Part shown: one piece after another, positions 1 through 10,444 of the stretch
Numbering within the stretch: position 1 is the stretch's first letter
How the letters are laid out: every line of letters starts with the position of its first letter
From: a virus
Lineage: Duplodnaviria; Heunggongvirae; Uroviricota; Caudoviricetes
IMG/VR virus record: IMGVR_UViG_2541047932_000014
Location: 1-10,970 of that record
Strand: one strand, 5' to 3'
Length of the DNA stretch: 10,970 nt
Program-made: the position numbers and the translations under genes
The notes under the pieces: model-generated
Databases searched by the model: none
Seen by the model: the letters and a program-made list of their open reading frames with translations, nothing else
What the model was told of the DNA's origin: nothing

Positions 1-2205
1 ACGGCGCGGGCAAGGGCAGCCGTGTACCGTGCTCAGCAGGCCGTGGCGGCAGCCCGCGGGACGGAGATGCAGATTGCTGCAGAGGCCCGTCTGGCGGCCA
101 CACAGGAACGCCTGAACAGAAATATTGCTGCCAGAAGCGCCGCCCAGAATGCGCTGAACAGTACAACGGCGGTGGGCTCACGTCTGATGACTGGTGCGTT
201 GGGACTGGTTGGTGGCGTACCCGGACTGGTGATGCTGGGGGCAGCAGCATGGTATACGCTGTACCAGAATCAGGAGCAGGCCAGGGAGTCAGCGCGCCAG
301 TATGCACTGACGATAGATGAAATCGCGCATAAAACGCCGTCAATGTCTTTGCCTGAAGCCTCAGATAATGAAGGACGAACACGGGCGGCGCTGGCAGAGC
401 AGAACCGGCTGATTGATGAACAGGCCAGCCGGGTGAAATCCCTGCAGGAAAAAATCGCTGGATATCAGTATGTTCTGGCTAACCCTGGCTGGACAACCGG
501 TGACGGATTCATGATAAACCATCTGACATCGGTGAAGACCGTGACGGAAGGGCTTTCTCAGGCAACAGAGCAGCTTGCCGTTGAGCAGTCCCGTCTGGCA
601 CAGATGCAGGAAAAAGCGCAGTCCATTCAGGATGTGCTTGCCGGGCTGGAAGACCGTCGTGTGGCGTTAATTCGTCAGCAGGCGGCAGAGCAGAATAAGG
701 TGTACCAGTCCATGCTGGTTATGAACGGTCAGCATACGGAATTCAACCGTCTGCTGGGGCTGGGTAATGAACTGCTTCAGCAGCGGCAGGGACTGGTGAA
801 TGTGCCGTTACGGCTGCCACAGGCCACTCTGGATGATAAACAGCAGAGTGCCCTGACAAAAACAGAGCGTGAGCTGGCCCTGTCCAGACTGAAAGGGGAA
901 GAAAAAGAGCGTGTCCGACTGGGGTATGCGGCGGATGACCTCGGTTTTGTGGGTGAACCGTATCAGGAGGCGAGACAACGTTATATCAGTAATGCCCTGG
1001 AAGCCTGGCGCAATAACGAGGCGAATAAACCCAAATCCCGGGGTGGAAAATCAGAGACGGAAAAAGCGGAAGACAGTTTTTCCCGGCTGCTGAAGCAGCA
1101 GAAAGAGCAACTGGCACTTGCGGGGCAGAATACAGAGCTGGCGAAGCTGAAATACCAGACTGCGCAGGGCGAACTGAAAACCCTGACGGAGATGCAGAAG
1201 CAGGAACTGCTGCGCAATGCGGCCCTGATTGACCAGCAAAAAATCCGGGAGCAGTTGCGGTCCCGGGAAGAGACCCTGAAGAATGATAATGTGGCTGCGC
1301 GTGCATCAAATGAAGCGGAACTGCTGGGGTACGGGCAGGGAGAGCGGCTCCGTGAACGCATGCGGGAGTTGCAGCAGATCCGCGACAGTTTCCGCCAGAA
1401 GGATGCGGACCTTCAGTCTCAGTATCAGACCGGGGATATCAGTGAGGATTTTTACAGACAGGCTCTGGCACAGAACGCGCAGTATCTGAGTGAACGTCTG
1501 AAAGAGCAGGAAGCCTTTTATGCCGAATCGGATGTGCAGCGTGCGGACTGGCAGAAAGGGCTGCAGGAGGGATTCAGTAACTGGGTGGATAATGCGTCCG
1601 ATTACGCCTCACAGGCAGCACAGCTGGCGACGGAGGGTATCTCAGGGATGGTGAATAACATCACGGAGATGCTGAACGGAAATAAAGTGGAATGGCGCAG
1701 CTGGGCCTCATCAGTGCTGCAGGAAATATCAAAAGTTCTTATGAATGCCGCGATTGTCAACGGGATCAAGACGGCGGCAAACAGTATGTCCGGAGCGGGA
1801 GGATTTATCGGCAGTATTGGTAGCTGGCTGGGCGGTGCGGTGGCCAATGCAAAAGGCGGGGTGTATACCTCGGCAAACCTGAGTGCGTACAGCAACAGTA
1901 TTGTGGATACGCCCACGTACTTTGCCTTTGCAAAAGGGGCGGGACTGATGGGGGAGGCCGGACCTGAAGCCATTATGCCTCTGACGCGGGCGGCGGATGG
2001 CTCGCTGGGTGTGCGAGCGGTGGGCAGTATGAACGGTAGTGCGGGTCTGGTGTATTCCCCGGTCTACCATATCGCCATTCAGAATGACGGGACTAATGGC
2101 CAGATAGGGCCGGAAGCTGCGGGCACCCTTGTGCAGCTGATTGACCAGCGGGTGCAGGCGGTGATGCTGTCCATGCGACGTGACGGAGGAATGCTGAGTG
2201 GCTGA
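1..2205 (+). CDS. H: Tail tape measure protein (lambda gpH-like), 5'-partial; open from window edge, stop TGA at 2203-2205
   Basis: Frame is open from position 1 through the 727-aa track ORF (22..2205). Long Q/E/R/A-rich, coiled-coil-like sequence followed by a Gly-rich hydrophobic segment (GGFIGSIGSWLGGAVANAKGG), typical of tape measure proteins. Position immediately upstream of M-L-K-I-J as in lambda. Similarity to lambda is recalled, not searched. Confidence 0.85.
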   Translation, partial: TARARAAVYRAQQAVAAARGTEMQIAAEARLAATQERLNRNIAARSAAQNALNSTTAVGSRLMTGALGLVGGVPGLVMLGAAAWYTLYQNQEQARESARQYALTIDEIAHKTPSMSLPEASDNEGRTRAALAEQNRLIDEQASRVKSLQEKIAGYQYVLANPGWTTGDGFMINHLTSVKTVTEGLSQATEQLAVEQSRLAQMQEKAQSIQDVLAGLEDRRVALIRQQAAEQNKVYQSMLVMNGQHTEFNRLLGLGNELLQQRQGLVNVPLRLPQATLDDKQQSALTKTERELALSRLKGEEKERVRLGYAADDLGFVGEPYQEARQRYISNALEAWRNNEANKPKSRGGKSETEKAEDSFSRLLKQQKEQLALAGQNTELAKLKYQTAQGELKTLTEMQKQELLRNAALIDQQKIREQLRSREETLKNDNVAARASNEAELLGYGQGERLRERMRELQQIRDSFRQKDADLQSQYQTGDISEDFYRQALAQNAQYLSERLKEQEAFYAESDVQRADWQKGLQEGFSNWVDNASDYASQAAQLATEGISGMVNNITEMLNGNKVEWRSWASSVLQEISKVLMNAAIVNGIKTAANSMSGAGGFIGSIGSWLGGAVANAKGGVYTSANLSAYSNSIVDTPTYFAFAKGAGLMGEAGPEAIMPLTRAADGSLGVRAVGSMNGSAGLVYSPVYHIAIQNDGTNGQIGPEAAGTLVQLIDQRVQAVMLSMRRDGGMLSG

Positions 2206-3242: not shown

Positions 3243-3986
3243 ATGACACAGACAGAATCAGCGATTCTGGCGCATGCCCGGCGGTGTGTGCCTGCGGAGT
3301 CGTGCGGCTTCGTGGTGAGAACGCCGGAGGGGGAGCGGTATATCCCTTGTGTGAATATCTCTGCAGAGCCGGAGGCGTATTTTCGTATTGCACCGGAAGA
3401 CTGGCTGCGGGCAGAGATGCAGGGGGAGATTGTGGCACTGGTCCACAGTCATCCCGGTGGTCTGCCCTGGCTGAGCGAGGCCGACCGGCGGCTGCAGATA
3501 AAAAGTGCACTGTCCTGGTGGCTGGTCTGCCGGGGGGAAATTCATAAATTCCGCTGTGTGCCACATCTGACAGGACGGCGCTTTGAGCACGGGGTGACGG
3601 ACTGTTACACGCTGTTCCGGGATGCCTACCATCTGGCGGGAATTGATATGCCGGATTTTGAGCGTGAGGATGACTGGTGGCGCAACGGTCAGAACCTGTA
3701 CCTGGACAATATGGAGGCGACTGGTTTTTACAGGATTTCCCTGCCTTCCGCACAGCCTGGCGATATCCTGCTGTGCTGCTTTGGCGCATCGGTGGCCAAT
3801 CATGCCGCCATATACTGCGGCAACGGTGAGCTGCTTCACCATCTGCCTGAACAACTGAGTAAACGGGAGAGGTATTCCGAAAAATGGCAACGACGAACGC
3901 ATTCAGCCTGGCGTCACCGCCACTGGCACGCATCTGCCTTCACGGGGATTTACAACGATTTGGCCGCCGCCTCAGCCTGTATGTGA
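3243..3986 (+). CDS. K: Tail tip assembly protein K (lambda gpK-like), JAMM/MPN plus NlpC/P60-like domains
   Basis: JAMM metalloprotease motif H-x-H-x7-S-x2-D is present as HSHPGGLPWLSEAD. The C-terminal half has a Cys/His arrangement compatible with NlpC/P60 (GVTDCYTLF ... NHAAIY ... HH). The 3' end overlaps the I start by 103 nt in another frame, as I recall for lambda K/I. The true start may be downstream of 3243, because lambda K is shorter in my memory. Confidence 0.85.
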   Translation: MTQTESAILAHARRCVPAESCGFVVRTPEGERYIPCVNISAEPEAYFRIAPEDWLRAEMQGEIVALVHSHPGGLPWLSEADRRLQIKSALSWWLVCRGEIHKFRCVPHLTGRRFEHGVTDCYTLFRDAYHLAGIDMPDFEREDDWWRNGQNLYLDNMEATGFYRISLPSAQPGDILLCCFGASVANHAAIYCGNGELLHHLPEQLSKRERYSEKWQRRTHSAWRHRHWHASAFTGIYNDLAAASACM

Positions 3987-4564
3987 ACACGGCAGCGGAA
4001 GCCATTCGCGCCCTGTCGATGCAGATGCCGGGCTTTCGCCGTCAGATGAACGAAGGCTGGTACCAGATACGTATTGCCGGTGATGACACGGCACCGGAGG
4101 CGGTGTATGCCCGTCTTCACGAACAGCTGGGTGAGGGAACGGTCATCCACATTGTGCCGCGACTGGCCGGGGCCAGAAAGGGTGGACTGCAGATTGTGCT
4201 GGGGGCGGCAGCCATCGTGGGGTCGTTCTTCACTGCCGGAGGCTCGATGGCGTTATGGGGTACAGCCCTGGCAGCCGGCGGTTTTTCTGCCACCACGATG
4301 CTGTTTTCACTGGGTGCCAGTATGATTCTGGGTGGTGTGGCCCAGATGCTGGCACCGAAGGCAAAAACACCGGATTACCGCGCAACGGATAACGGTAAAC
4401 AGAACACGTATTTTTCCTCACTGGACAATATGATTGCCCAGGGTAACCCGATGCCGGTGCCTTACGGGGAAATGCTGGTTGGTTCACGACGGATATCCCA
4501 GGACATCAGCACCCGTGATGAAGGCGGGGGCGGAAAGGTCGTGGTTATCGGGCGGCAGGGGTAA
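3884..4564 (+). CDS. I: Tail tip assembly protein I (lambda gpI-like)
   Basis: 226-aa ORF. N-terminus (ARICLHGDLQRFGRR), Gly/Ala-rich hydrophobic core and C-terminal block (TDNGKQNTYFSSLDNM.AQGN) match my memory of lambda gpI. Stop TAA at 4562-4564. Confidence 0.9.
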   Translation: MATTNAFSLASPPLARICLHGDLQRFGRRLSLYVNTAAEAIRALSMQMPGFRRQMNEGWYQIRIAGDDTAPEAVYARLHEQLGEGTVIHIVPRLAGARKGGLQIVLGAAAIVGSFFTAGGSMALWGTALAAGGFSATTMLFSLGASMILGGVAQMLAPKAKTPDYRATDNGKQNTYFSSLDNMIAQGNPMPVPYGEMLVGSRRISQDISTRDEGGGGKVVVIGRQG

Positions 4565-4565
4565 A

Positions 4566-4610
4566 AAGAATAAAAAAATCCCGCAGAGTTGCGGAACTGC
4601 GGGAGCGTTA
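4566..4610 (-). terminator. Rho-independent terminator oriented for minus-strand transcription
   Basis: Hairpin CCCGCAG..CTGCGGG (about 4580-4603; 7-bp GC-rich stem, extendable by TT/AA pairing around a GCGG loop). On the + strand it is preceded by the A-run aaagaataaaaaaat, so on the minus strand the stem is followed by ATTTTTTTATTCTTT. On the + strand it is followed by agcgttacg, which is not U-rich. Confidence 0.6.
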
Positions 4611-4639
4611 CGAAGATTAAGTGTAAGGAATTATTCTTA

Positions 4640-6012
<1,373 letters not shown>

Positions 6013-6030
6013 ATCGGTGGGCATGAAAGA

Positions 6031-6069
6031 AAACCCCGGTATCTGCTGATACCGGGGTTTCTCTTTAGC
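6031..6069. terminator. Perfect 13-bp inverted repeat hairpin, possible bidirectional intrinsic terminator between the IS and J
   Basis: AAACCCCGGTATC tgct GATACCGGGGTTT (6031-6060), followed by CTCTTT on the + strand and preceded by GAAAGA (T-rich on the minus strand). Confidence 0.5.
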
Positions 6070-6163
6070 ATGACAGAAATGTGTTTCATGCTTTTCGGGC
6101 GAAGGATATCCGACTTCTGTACGGAATGGCAAGTGGCGGTTAATTTATTCAGGGGAAGGCTGT

Positions 6164-9100
6164 ATGGGAAAAGGTGGCGGTAAGGCACACACGCCTCGTG
6201 AGGCGAAGGATAATCTCAAATCCACGCAGATGATGAGCGTGATTGATGCGATTGGTGAGGGACCGATAGAAGGTCCGGTGAAGGGACTGCAGAGTATCCT
6301 GGTGAACAAAACCCCGCTGACGGACACGGACGGTAATCCCGTGATACACGGTGTGACGGCGGTCTGGCGCGCCGGGGAGCAGGAGCAGACACCACCGGAA
6401 GGCTTTGAGTCCTCCGGTGCTGAAACCGGACTGGGCGTGGAAGTGACGAAGGCAAAACCGGTGACGCGCACCATTACGTCCGCGAACATTGACCGCCTGC
6501 GGGTTACCTTCGGGGTGCAGTCACTGGTGCAGACCACGTCAAAGGGCGACCGTAATCCTTCCTCTGTCCGGATTCTGATTCAGTTACAGCGTAATGGCCG
6601 CTGGGTGACGGAAAAGGACGTCACCATTAACGGCAAGACCACCTCACAGTTCCTGGCCTCGGTGATTCTGGATAATCTGCCTCCCCGGCCCTTTAACATC
6701 CGGATGGTCAGGGAGACGGCGGACAGCACCACGGACCAGCTGCAGAATAAGACGCTGTGGTCGTCATACACCGAAATCATCGATGTGAAACAGTGCTACC
6801 CGAACACGGCCATTGTGGGGCTGCAGGTGGATGCGGAGCAGTTTGGCGGTCAGCAGATGACGGTGAACTACCATATCCGAGGTCGCATCATCCAGGTGCC
6901 GTCAAACTATGACCCGGAAAAACGCACGTACAGCGGCATCTGGGACGGCAGTCTGAAACCGGCATACAGCAACAACCCGGCCTGGTGCCTGTGGGACATG
7001 CTGACTCACCCGCGCTACGGCATGGGAAAACGTCTGGGGGCGGCGGATGTTGACAAGTGGGCGCTGTATGCCATCGGGCAGTACTGCGACCAGACGGTCC
7101 CGGATGGTTTCGGGGGCACAGAGCCGCGGATGACCTTTAATGCGTACCTGTCACAACAGCGTAAGGCGTGGGACGTTCTCAGTGATTTCTGCTCGGCGAT
7201 GCGCTGTATGCCGGTATGGAACGGCCAGACGCTGACGTTCGTTCAGGACCGCCCGTCGGATGTGGTGTGGCCGTACACCAACTGCGATGTGGTGGTGGAT
7301 GATAACGGCGTGGGGTTTCGCTACAGCTTCAGCGCCCTGAAGGACCGGCACACGGCGGTGGAGGTGAATTACACCGACCCGCAGAACGGCTGGCAGACCT
7401 CCACGGAACTGGTGGAAGACCCGGAAGCCATACTGCGCTACGGGCGCAACCTGCTGAAGATGGATGCGTTCGGTTGCACCAGTCGCGGTCAGGCCCACCG
7501 TGCCGGGCTGTGGGTGATAAAGACCGGACTGCTGGAAACGCAGACGGTGGATTTCACGCTCGGGTCACAGGGGCTGCGTCACACACCCGGTGACATTATT
7601 GAAATCTGTGATAACGACTATGCCGGGACCATGACCGGCGGACGTATCCTGTCCATCGATGCCGCCAGCCGCACCCTGACACTGGACCGTGAGGTGACCC
7701 TGCCGGAGACAGGTGCCGCCACGGTGAACCTGATTAACGGTGGCGGTAAGCCGGTGAGCGTGGCCATCACCGCACACCCCGCGCCGGACCGGATACAGGT
7801 CAGTACCCTGCCGGATGGTGTGGAGACATACGGTGTGTGGGGGCTTTCCCTGCCGTCACTGCGTCGTCGCCTGTTTCGCTGTGTCTGCATCCGGGAAAAC
7901 ACGGACGGCACTTTTGCCATCACGGCAGTGCAGCATGTGCCGGAAAAAGAAGCCATCGTGGATAACGGGGCCAGCTTTGAGCCGCAGTCAGGCACCCTGA
8001 ACAGCGTTATTCCACCGGCAGTGCAGCACCTGACGGTGGAGGTGAGCGCGGCTGACGGTCAGTATCTGGCACAGGCGAAATGGGACACGCCGAGGGTGGT
8101 GAAGGGCGTGCGCTTCAGTCTGCGCCTGACCAGTGGAAGCGGTGAGAACAGCCGCCTGCTGACCACCGCCATCACTGCCGATACGGAGCACCGTTTCAGT
8201 GGCCTGCCGCTCGGGGAATACACCCTGACGGTGCGGGCGATAAACAGCTATGGCCAGCAGGGTGAACCTGCCACCACCACCTTCCGGATTGCCGCACCGG
8301 CAGCACCGTCGCGGATTGAGCTGACGCCGGGCTATTTTCAGATAACCGCCACGCCGCATCTTGCCGTTTATGACCCGACGGTACAGTTTGAGTTCTGGTT
8401 CTCGGAAAAGCGGATTGCGGATATCAGGCAGGTTGAAACCGCAGCCCGCTATCTTGGCTCGGCGCTGTACTGGATAGCTGCCAGTATCAATATCAAACCG
8501 GGCCATGATTATTATTTTTATATCCGCAGTGTGAATACTGTTGGCAAATCGGCATTTGTGGAGGCTGTTGGCCAGCCGAGTGATGATGCATCCGGCTATC
8601 TGGATTTTTTCAAAGGAGAGATAGGGAAAACCCATCTGGCTCAGGAGTTGTGGACGCAGATTGATAACGGTCAGCTTGCGCCTGATCTGGCTGAAATCAG
8701 GACGTCCATTACGAATGTCAGCAATGAAATCACGCAGACCGTCAATAAAAAACTGGAAAATCAGAGCGCGGCAATCCAGCAGATACAGAAAGTTCAGGTT
8801 GATACAAATAATAACCTGAACAGCATGTGGGCCGTGAAACTGCAGCAGATGAAGGACGGACGCCTTTATATTGCGGGTATCGGAGCCGGTATTGAGAATA
8901 CGCCAGCAGGTATGCAGAGTCAGGTGCTTCTGGCTGCTGACCGGATTGCGATGATTAATCCTGCGAATGGCAACACAAAGCCGATGTTTGTTGGTCAGGG
9001 CGATCAGATATTCATGAACGAAGTGTTCCTGAAATACCTGACGGCTCCCACCATTACCAGTGGCGGTAATCCTCCGGCATTTTCCCTGACACCGGACGGG

Positions 9101-9637
9101 CGGCTGACGGCGAAAAATACCGATATCAGCGGTAACGTGAATGCGAACTCCGGGACGCTCAACAACGTCACGATTAACGAAAACTGTCGGGTTCTGGGAA
9201 AACTGTCCGCCAACCAGATTGAAGGCGATCTCGTTAAAACAGTGGGCAAAGCTTTCCCCCGGGACTCCCGTGCACCGGAGCGGTGGCCATCAGGGACCAT
9301 TACCGTCAGGGTTTATGACGATCAGCCGTTTGACCGGCAAATTGTTATTCCGGCGGTGGCATTCAGTGGCGCTAAGCATGAGAGAGAGCATACTGATATT
9401 TACTCCTCATGCCGTCTGATAGTGCGGAAAAACGGTGCTGAAATTTATAACCGTACCGCGCTGGATAATACGCTGATTTACAGTGGTGTTATTGATATGC
9501 CTGCCGGTCACGGTCACATGACGCTGGAGTTTTCGGTGTCAGCATGGCTGGTAAATAACTGGTATCCCACAGCAAGTATCAGCGATTTGCTGGTTGTGGT
9601 GATGAAGAAAGCCACCGCAGGCATCAGTATCAGCTGA
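6164..9637 (+). CDS. J: Tail tip attachment / central tail fiber protein J (host specificity protein, lambda gpJ-like)
   Basis: 1157-aa ORF. The N-terminus [22 protein letters not shown] and many internal blocks ([97 protein letters not shown]) match lambda J as I recall it. Good RBS GGGGAAGG upstream of the ATG. Confidence 0.96.
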
Positions 9638-9656
9638 ATTTTATAACCCATATACG

Positions 9657-9683
9657 GGCGCCAGAAATGGCGCCTTTTTTATT
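9657..9683 (+). terminator. Rho-independent terminator immediately downstream of J
   Basis: GGCGCC agaaat GGCGCC (palindromic 6-bp GC stem) followed by TTTTTTATT, starting 20 nt after the J stop. Confidence 0.7.
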
Positions 9684-9704: not shown

Positions 9705-10304
9705 ATGCGTAAAGTTTGTGCAGCCATTTTGTCCGCAGCCATCTGTCTGTCCGTATCCGGTGCGCCTGCATGGGCGTCTGAACATCAGTCCACACTGAGC
9801 GCGGGGTATCTTCATGCCCGTACGAACGCTCCCGGCAGCGATAATCTGAACGGGATTAACGTGAAATACCGTTATGAGTTTACGGACGCGCTGGGGCTGA
9901 TTACGTCCTTCAGTTATGCCAATGCTGAGGATGAGCAAAAAACGCACTACAGCGATACCCGCTGGCATGAAGATTCCGTGCGTAACCGCTGGTTCAGCGT
10001 GATAGCGGGGCCGTCTGTGCGCGTGAATGAATGGTTCAGCGCGTATGCGATGGCGGGTGTGTCTTACAGCCGTGTGTCGACTTTCTCCGGGGATTATCTC
10101 CGCGTAACTGACAACAAGGGGAAAACGCACGATGTGCTGACCGGAAGTGATGACGGTCGCCACAGCAACACGTCTCTGGCGTGGGGGGCTGGCGTGCAGT
10201 TTAACCCGACCGAATCCGTGACCATTGACCTTGCTTATGAAGGTTCCGGTAGTGGCGACTGGCGAACGGATGCATTTATTGTTGGTATCGGATACCGTTT
10301 CTGA
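9705..10304 (+). CDS. lom: Outer membrane protein Lom (Ail/Lom family 8-strand beta-barrel), lysogenic-conversion-type gene
   Basis: 199-aa ORF with signal peptide MRKVCAAILSAAICLSVSGAPAWA, a terminal aromatic residue (GIGYRF) typical of outer membrane beta-barrels, and alternating amphipathic strands. Position between J and stf as in lambda. RBS GAGAGG. Confidence 0.93.
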   Translation: MRKVCAAILSAAICLSVSGAPAWASEHQSTLSAGYLHARTNAPGSDNLNGINVKYRYEFTDALGLITSFSYANAEDEQKTHYSDTRWHEDSVRNRWFSVIAGPSVRVNEWFSAYAMAGVSYSRVSTFSGDYLRVTDNKGKTHDVLTGSDDGRHSNTSLAWGAGVQFNPTESVTIDLAYEGSGSGDWRTDAFIVGIGYRF

Positions 10305-10410
10305 CAACAGACGCCGATTTATCTTCTGTAAATATTGTTATGATACGCAGGTTCATCCACCTTATGGGGTGAACTGCGTTTGAGGAAACGTAAAGTTACA
10401 CTGTCCTGAA

Positions 10411-10444
10411 GCCCGTGGCGTCACTGCTGCGGGCTTTTTTTATT
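10411..10444 (+). terminator. Rho-independent terminator downstream of lom
   Basis: GC-rich hairpin GCCCGTGGCG tcac TGCTGCGGGC (with G-U pairs) followed by TTTTTTTATT. Only about 12 nt separate it from the stf start codon. Confidence 0.65.

Follow-up and report, generated by a model that had tools for sequence, protein, structure and literature searches.

The window, by which we mean the whole 10,970-bp stretch of DNA that was analysed, covers the tail end of a lambda-like prophage, and its genes match the expected Pfam families (Table 1). The gap between the tail assembly gene I and the tail-tip gene J measures 1599 bp, of which 1258 bp is accounted for by an insertion sequence (IS). A hairpin lies between the right end of the IS and gene J. 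A gene of the PasB small RNA (sRNA) family, which is unannotated, is located directly after gene I.

Table 1. Coordinates, strand and basis of the features discussed (positions are those of the window).
Feature	Position	Strand	Basis and remarks
Tape measure gene H	22-2205	+	Pfam match; M and L follow before K
Gene K	3243-3986	+	Pfam match
Tail assembly gene I	3884-4564	+	PF06805; left border of the I-J intergenic region
PasB-family sRNA gene	4572-4663	-	Allele diverged from E2348/69 PasB; terminator 4598-4577 plus T7 tract
PasB promoter, TTCACA-16-AATAAT	-35 4697-4692, -10 4675-4670	-	Promoter scan
CRP-like site AAATGTGAAGATATTCAGAATT, TGTGA-N6-TCAGA	4697-4718	-	Near-consensus, conserved
IS3-family insertion sequence	4755-6012	+	IS911-like terminal inverted repeats TGTAGTGG...CCACTACA
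T-rich tail TTTTCTTTC	6022-6033	-	T-tail score 4.15
Hairpin, perfect 13-bp/13-bp arms, loop TGCT	6031-6043, 6048-6060		Arms AAACCCCGGTATC and GATACCGGGGTTT; GC-rich core CCCCGGTATC/GATACCGGGG
T-rich tail TTTCTCTTT, read from the end of the GC core	6058-6069	+	T-tail score 3.43
Second, weaker hairpin, AGCATGA-12 nt-TCATGCT, then TTTTC	6067-6092	+	Folding
Promoter-like TTGCCA-18-TATCCT	6103-6132	-	Promoter scan; 9/12 match
Tail-tip gene J	6164-9637	+	PF24801, PF13550, PF09327, PF12421; right border of the I-J region
Canonical terminator directly after J	9656-9675	+	Consensus scan; brackets the lom moron
lom	9705-10304	+	Pfam match
Canonical terminator after lom	10408-10437	+	Consensus scan; brackets the lom moron

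An earlier, sequence-only reading of this DNA had described a perfect 13-bp inverted repeat with a TGCT loop about 100 bp upstream of the J start, and both measurements were confirmed: the two arms are 100% complementary, the loop is 4 nt long and the 3' end of the hairpin stands 103 nt from the J start codon. The extension of the feature to position 6069 is accounted for by the T-rich tail TCTCTTTAG. When the whole window was searched for perfect inverted repeats of at least 9 bp with a loop of 3-10 nt, this hairpin alone was found, and in 100 first-order Markov simulations no arm was longer than 11 bp. The folding-energy calculation proposed in the same reading also bore out the structure: for a 61-mer, folding energies of -29.8 kcal/mol (+) and -28.5 kcal/mol (-) were obtained (z ~ -7), and 0 of 200 shuffles were equally stable. 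For the GC core of 10 bp (13 bp for the full stem), the energies were -19.1 kcal/mol (+) and -18.5 kcal/mol (-).

T-tail scores of the hairpin were computed relative to the GC core, not to the full 13-bp stem (Table 1); for comparison, the pre-J terminator of E2348/69 scored 3.69 and the PasB terminator 4.93. Seven of the nine bases past the GC core are T on either strand. Directly 3' of the stem, the tails read UUUCUCUUU (+) and UUUUCUUUC (-), and both are interrupted by a C. A GC-rich stem with a T-rich tail on both strands is the form expected of a two-way Rho-independent terminator, in which termination may be only partial because the T tracts TTTCTCTTT and TTTTCTTTC are interrupted. The hairpin was not among the sites listed by a consensus terminator scan of the window, probably because its A-rich 5' flank pairs with its T-rich 3' flank and lengthens the stem. 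The second, weaker hairpin still pairs, as G.U and on the + strand only, in the presence of the common A-to-G variant at 6073. No promoter-like site was found on the + strand between 6061 and 6163 by promoter scan, a search of Rfam 15 with E values up to 1 gave no match in the hairpin region, and the hairpin sequence gave no match in the searchable literature.

The IS carries orfA (4827-5138, HTH) and, in the -1 frame, orfB (DDE, rve), which ends at 6004. It is 99.7% identical to copies scattered over E. coli genomes, and was inserted at ATC in the I-J intergenic region, with 18 bp between its right end and the hairpin. The triplets that flank it are GTC and ATC, and the empty site reads ATC, which makes the target duplication an imperfect one. 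The exact IS-spacer junction was found in 0 of 5426 complete E. coli genomes; the insertion is therefore recent or private to the strain. The palindrome had also been considered as possible inserted material. This idea was abandoned, since the hairpin lies outside the right inverted repeat of the IS and an identical hairpin is present at IS-free loci: in two of these (L001 and L002) the I-J spacer is uninterrupted, measures 343 bp and carries the same hairpin. Where copies of the IS occupy other sites, the flanks differ and the hairpin is absent beside them. The IS3-family element is a later insertion, unrelated to the hairpin.

The only Rfam match in the whole window was isrC, inside the IS. 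This match to an 'Hfq binding RNA' model (4823-4945; 150 bits, E 2e-37) comprises the start of orfA and its first ~120 nt, so the model matches transposase-gene sequence here.

PasB was described in EPEC E2348/69 as an 83-nt RNA encoded on the minus strand (NC_011601, 1466343-1466261) between the I and J homologues, and it decreases under the activating growth condition (PMC8550237). The E2348/69 northern probe and coordinates place PasB at the position homologous to the PasB-family gene of the window. In O157 Sakai, EcOnc22, EcOnc23 and EcOnc24 were reported as Hfq-bound, Hfq-dependent RNAs of ~85 nt (PMC4104026). The Sakai coordinates of that study were shifted by ~+128 bp to fit NC_002695.2, with the offset validated on the HnrS terminator, and the three RNAs then mapped to the PasB position in the I-J spacers of Sp15, Sp14 and Sp11 (Sp14, Sp15 and Sp11 are loci L201, L371 and L372 of our survey). 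At these coordinates, EcOnc22, EcOnc23 and EcOnc24 appear to be homologues of PasB; the EPEC paper gives no EHEC homologue (PMC8550237).

Upstream of the PasB promoter, the CRP-like site AAATGTGAAGATATTCAGAATT abuts the -35 element, with its centre at about -44.5. The centre of a canonical CRP site is at -41.5. The half-sites are conserved among diverged PasB alleles, and the 6-bp spacer between them varies. A candidate CRP site at this place would fit the drop in PasB reported previously (PMC8550237).

PasB and EcOnc22-24 share the I-J intergenic region with the hairpin and are nearly always linked to it. They nevertheless form a separate unit on the minus strand, with a terminator of their own, 190 bp to the left of the hairpin. 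The hairpin was accordingly rejected as a part of PasB, a unit of the spacer that has a hairpin of its own. Other named sRNAs were rejected on the grounds of location: HnrS (EcOnc10-12) lies after the lysis genes and not between I and J, and AgvB and AsxR are both found at the PR' moron site.

The distribution of the hairpin was surveyed with the version of the right-half module of the I-J region that the window carries, called type W here (4719-4754 plus 6013-6163). Of 5426 complete E. coli genomes, 1446 carry the 151-bp segment 6013-6163 with an identity of at least 95%, at a median of one place per genome (maximum 4) and with no annotation beneath it. In a blastn search in distant mode, the 151-bp module matched type W loci alone. 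An exact-pattern scan recovered the hairpin in 111 IMG/VR contigs and one E. albertii contig, in the same context throughout, and all 114 loci with the TGCT loop (IMG/VR, E. albertii and E. coli) have it between I and J. A search for further copies had been proposed as a check for a repeated element; as the median genome has a single copy and every copy sits at the same I-J locus, the hairpin is not a dispersed repeat, and the many unrelated loci per genome that mark a palindromic repeat of the REP/BIME kind were not found.

Type W copies are identical in 135 of 154 cases and are joined to at least four diverged PasB alleles. A near-invariant module beside diverged alleles implies that it spread recently, by recombination at the conserved promoter/CRP block. 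Since type W is nearly invariant, it affords no covariation test for its hairpin, and the strand is assigned by analogy with type E (see below), lambda and HK97-like phages. The hairpin has been lost naturally in one IMG/VR locus (L179), where 48 bp between AGAAA repeats are missing; in strain NZRM4165 (L202) a more extensive deletion begins within gene I and reaches the right arm of the hairpin. As the hairpin is missing from L179, from SPN3UB-like phages and from mEp515, it is dispensable.

Alleles of the spacer were surveyed at 80 IMG/VR loci with an I protein at least 96% identical. Type W was found at 42 loci, a second module (type E) at 30, an apparent minus-strand sodC moron at six, a hairpin-deleted type W at one and a truncated spacer at one; types W and E are therefore alternative alleles of one position. 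Carriers of type E include E2348/69 (PP6) and Sakai Sp14, Sp15 and Sp11. Type W sits at exactly the place of type E, and both stand directly to the right of the conserved block of PasB promoter and CRP-like site. They differ in that the type E spacer is 103 bp shorter (234-240 bp), its stem is CAGGCAYCC-loop-GGRTGCCTG, followed by TTGTTTTT, and it has a T tract on the + strand only (T-tail score 3.69 on the + strand, 0.43 on the - strand). Type E is also diverse and shows covariation, whereas type W is almost invariant. Pair 7 of the type E stem alternates between C-G and T-A, and T.G intermediates that pair in + strand RNA only were found at eight loci (three haplotypes), against one locus at which the - strand is favoured. 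These changes at pair 7 and the one-sided T tract identify type E as a + strand terminator.

We also considered a + strand sRNA that would diverge from PasB and have the hairpin as its terminator. This idea was rejected, since neither type W nor type E offered a credible + strand promoter, and the CRP-like site and hairpin of type E stand too close together to accommodate one. The six loci with a spacer of ~848 bp (L120, L146, L167, L168, L180 and L196) contain an apparent sodC-like gene on the minus strand, recognised from its translation alone. This gene replaces the PasB promoter, so that PasB at these loci would need read-through or processing of the sodC transcript.

Hairpins directly before J were also found in phages of unrelated sequence. 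In lambda, the 60-bp I-J spacer (NC_001416, 15445-15504) contains ACCGCC-tgcg-GGCGGT followed by TTTGTCATTT, ~30 nt before J, for which no annotation was found in the NC_001416 record. It resembles the window hairpin in having a GC-rich stem and a T-rich tail, on the late strand and directly before J, and differs in its unrelated sequence and in that no PasB cassette lies between I and the hairpin. In the HK97-like phage HK633 (NC_019719) a 'rho-independent terminator' is annotated 12 nt before the J homologue, and in phiKO2 (NC_005857) a 'terminator' is annotated between the I and J homologues. A + strand terminator was detected at 80 of 80 HK633-like IMG/VR loci, with an invariant stem, five loop variants and a closing pair that is either G.U or A-U. 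The HK633 and phiKO2 terminators occupy the last gap before J on the same strand and have a GC stem, a 4-nt loop and a T tract; they have no sequence similarity to the window hairpin, stand 12 nt before J and are one-directional with a T7 tract, whereas the window hairpin stands 103 nt before J and has interrupted T tracts, with tails on both strands. The pre-J hairpin of Serratia phage LittleDog reads AGCCCC-tatcct-GGGGCT and is followed by T7.

Taken over these positional analogues (lambda, HK633, phiKO2, LittleDog and type E), the T tract is always on the late-operon strand, and the distance to J is 12-45 nt, against 103 nt in type W. Type W is also unlike the analogues in that its minus-strand tail equals or betters its + strand tail. 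Where I and J almost abut, as in mEp515 and in the SPN3UB-like group (no hairpin at 69 of 80 loci), the hairpin is absent. The window hairpin shares with the analogues its place between I and J on the late-operon strand, and the type W stem is unrelated in sequence to those of lambda, the HK97-like phages and type E. What unites the class of pre-J terminators is position and function rather than common descent.

Internal terminators are common in lambdoid late operons, where they may terminate partially or stop transcription that is not antiterminated, and the role of intra-operon terminators has been called unknown by annotators of phage genomes (bioRxiv 10.1101/2020.10.05.325894). With hairpins before J across phages and with terminators after J and after lom in the window itself, a terminator within a lambdoid late operon is normal, and the view that such a palindrome is unusual there was given up; those of HK633 and phiKO2 are annotated between I and J. 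The terminators that flank the lom moron are likewise intrinsic terminators within an antiterminated operon. They differ in that they end an identifiable gene; for the window hairpin neither a gene nor a promoter was found on the + strand.

On the strength of its form and of these analogies, the hairpin is probably a Rho-independent (intrinsic) terminator native to the I-J region of the prophage, the local version of a widespread pre-J hairpin. The proposal that it is a bidirectional terminator bracketing the inserted DNA holds for its first half only: the anatomy is that of a two-way terminator and other phages have terminators at the same position, but the hairpin does not bracket the insertion, since it lies 18 bp outside the IS and is present at IS-free loci. 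In lambda, RNA polymerase modified by Q is established to pass intrinsic terminators. During lytic growth, Q-modified polymerase from PR' would thus pass the hairpin, and the one late transcript would still yield J. In lysogens, polymerase that lacks this modification and strays rightward from the tail genes or from the PasB cassette would be halted before J. The A-rich 5' flank and T-rich 3' flank make leftward termination probable too, and transcription antisense to J would then also be stopped before it reached the PasB promoter. It had been argued that J would need a downstream promoter if the hairpin terminated rightward transcription; given read-through by Q-modified polymerase, J needs no promoter of its own.

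The hairpin alone is of little import, as it has the standard form of a terminator and Q antitermination explains the expression of J. Its value lies in annotation and context: it shows that the IS has only recently entered an I-J cassette which is widespread, has gone unannotated and includes a PasB-family sRNA gene, and the hairpin adds one further, sequence-independent case of lambda-like phages keeping a terminator just before J.

Among other explanations of the hairpin, we regard as doubtful that it terminates a second, unannotated minus-strand sRNA of ~70 nt, running from ~6096 to ~6024 beside the PasB gene. The promoter-like TTGCCA-18-TATCCT stands at a suitable distance, the minus-strand tail outscores the + strand tail, the predicted RNA would consist of a 5' stem-loop, an A-rich linker and the terminator, and paired sRNAs are often found at prophage intergenic sites (PMC4104026). 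Promoter-like matches of 9/12 quality, however, occur in the window at chance frequency (6 found, 6.7 expected from shuffles), and the Rfam search described above returned nothing for this RNA. With G at 6073, the variant found most often, the 5' stem of the minus-strand RNA loses its closing pair, whereas + strand RNA retains a G.U pair. The minus-strand RNA would have only four consecutive U, against seven in PasB; long U tails are typical of Hfq-dependent sRNAs. The type E, lambda and HK97-like analogues, moreover, have no minus-strand tail, and within the I-J spacers Hfq CRAC in Sakai reported no RNAs other than the PasB homologues (PMC4104026). It is likewise improbable that the hairpin acts on the late mRNA, as a stability or processing barrier that would shield the upstream tail-gene segment from 3' exonucleases or would cap the J segment on its 5' side, thereby setting the relative amount of J. 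Such a role would explain why hairpins on the mRNA strand have been kept before J in several lineages, even though Q-modified polymerase ignores terminators; PasB is also fully complementary to the late transcript just upstream, where RNase III cleavage would be favoured. Yet all the analogues retain a T tract, which is required for termination and not for a stability hairpin. Two wider readings seem unlikely to us: that the ~70-nt minus-strand sRNA is indeed encoded beside PasB, in which case the I-J spacer would be a two-sRNA moron, and, more generally, that pre-J terminators, conserved in position but unrelated in sequence, serve as a dedicated control point, setting the dosage of J or insulating it in lysogens.

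A role of the palindrome at the DNA level, either as an operator for a dimeric protein or as a hotspot of recombination or cruciform formation, seems very unlikely. A perfect 13-bp palindrome would suit such a site, and it lies near mosaic junctions, with the L202 deletion ending in its right arm and the L179 deletion removing it. The analogues, on the other hand, have no common sequence and share RNA-level features only (a stem, a T tract, and compensatory and G.U changes), and neither a candidate binding protein nor a second site within the window was found; the protein-binding operator envisaged earlier is thus disfavoured. We give practically no credence to the hairpin being part of the IS or a member of a family of dispersed repeats, REP for instance. 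The short distance to the right end of the IS is in keeping with this idea, which is already refuted by the unchanged hairpin in IS-free loci, the differing flanks at other copies of the IS and the copy number, which has a median of one per genome, with every copy located between I and J. The intrinsic terminator native to the I-J region is therefore the explanation that we retain.

Two open reading frames that span the entire spacer of IS-free loci, of 113 aa (L001 2830-3171, + strand) and 94 aa (L001 2892-3176, - strand), were considered as small proteins and judged spurious, because they have non-ATG starts and cross promoter and terminators alike, and because spacers differ in length (338-344 nt) by non-multiples of three.

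The remaining matches of the exact-pattern scan lay outside these phages, in two genomes. In a metagenome-assembled genome (MAG) of Hahellaceae, the identical 12-bp stem AACCCCGGTATC/GATACCGGGGTT occurs with other loops and is followed by TTTT (L005 6564-6591 and L008 2752-2779). It is located 10 nt past the 5S rRNA in two rrn operons, which is the position of an rRNA-operon terminator. This use of the stem is independent and convergent, at a terminator position. One Oscillospiraceae MAG has the stem as well and was counted as convergent.
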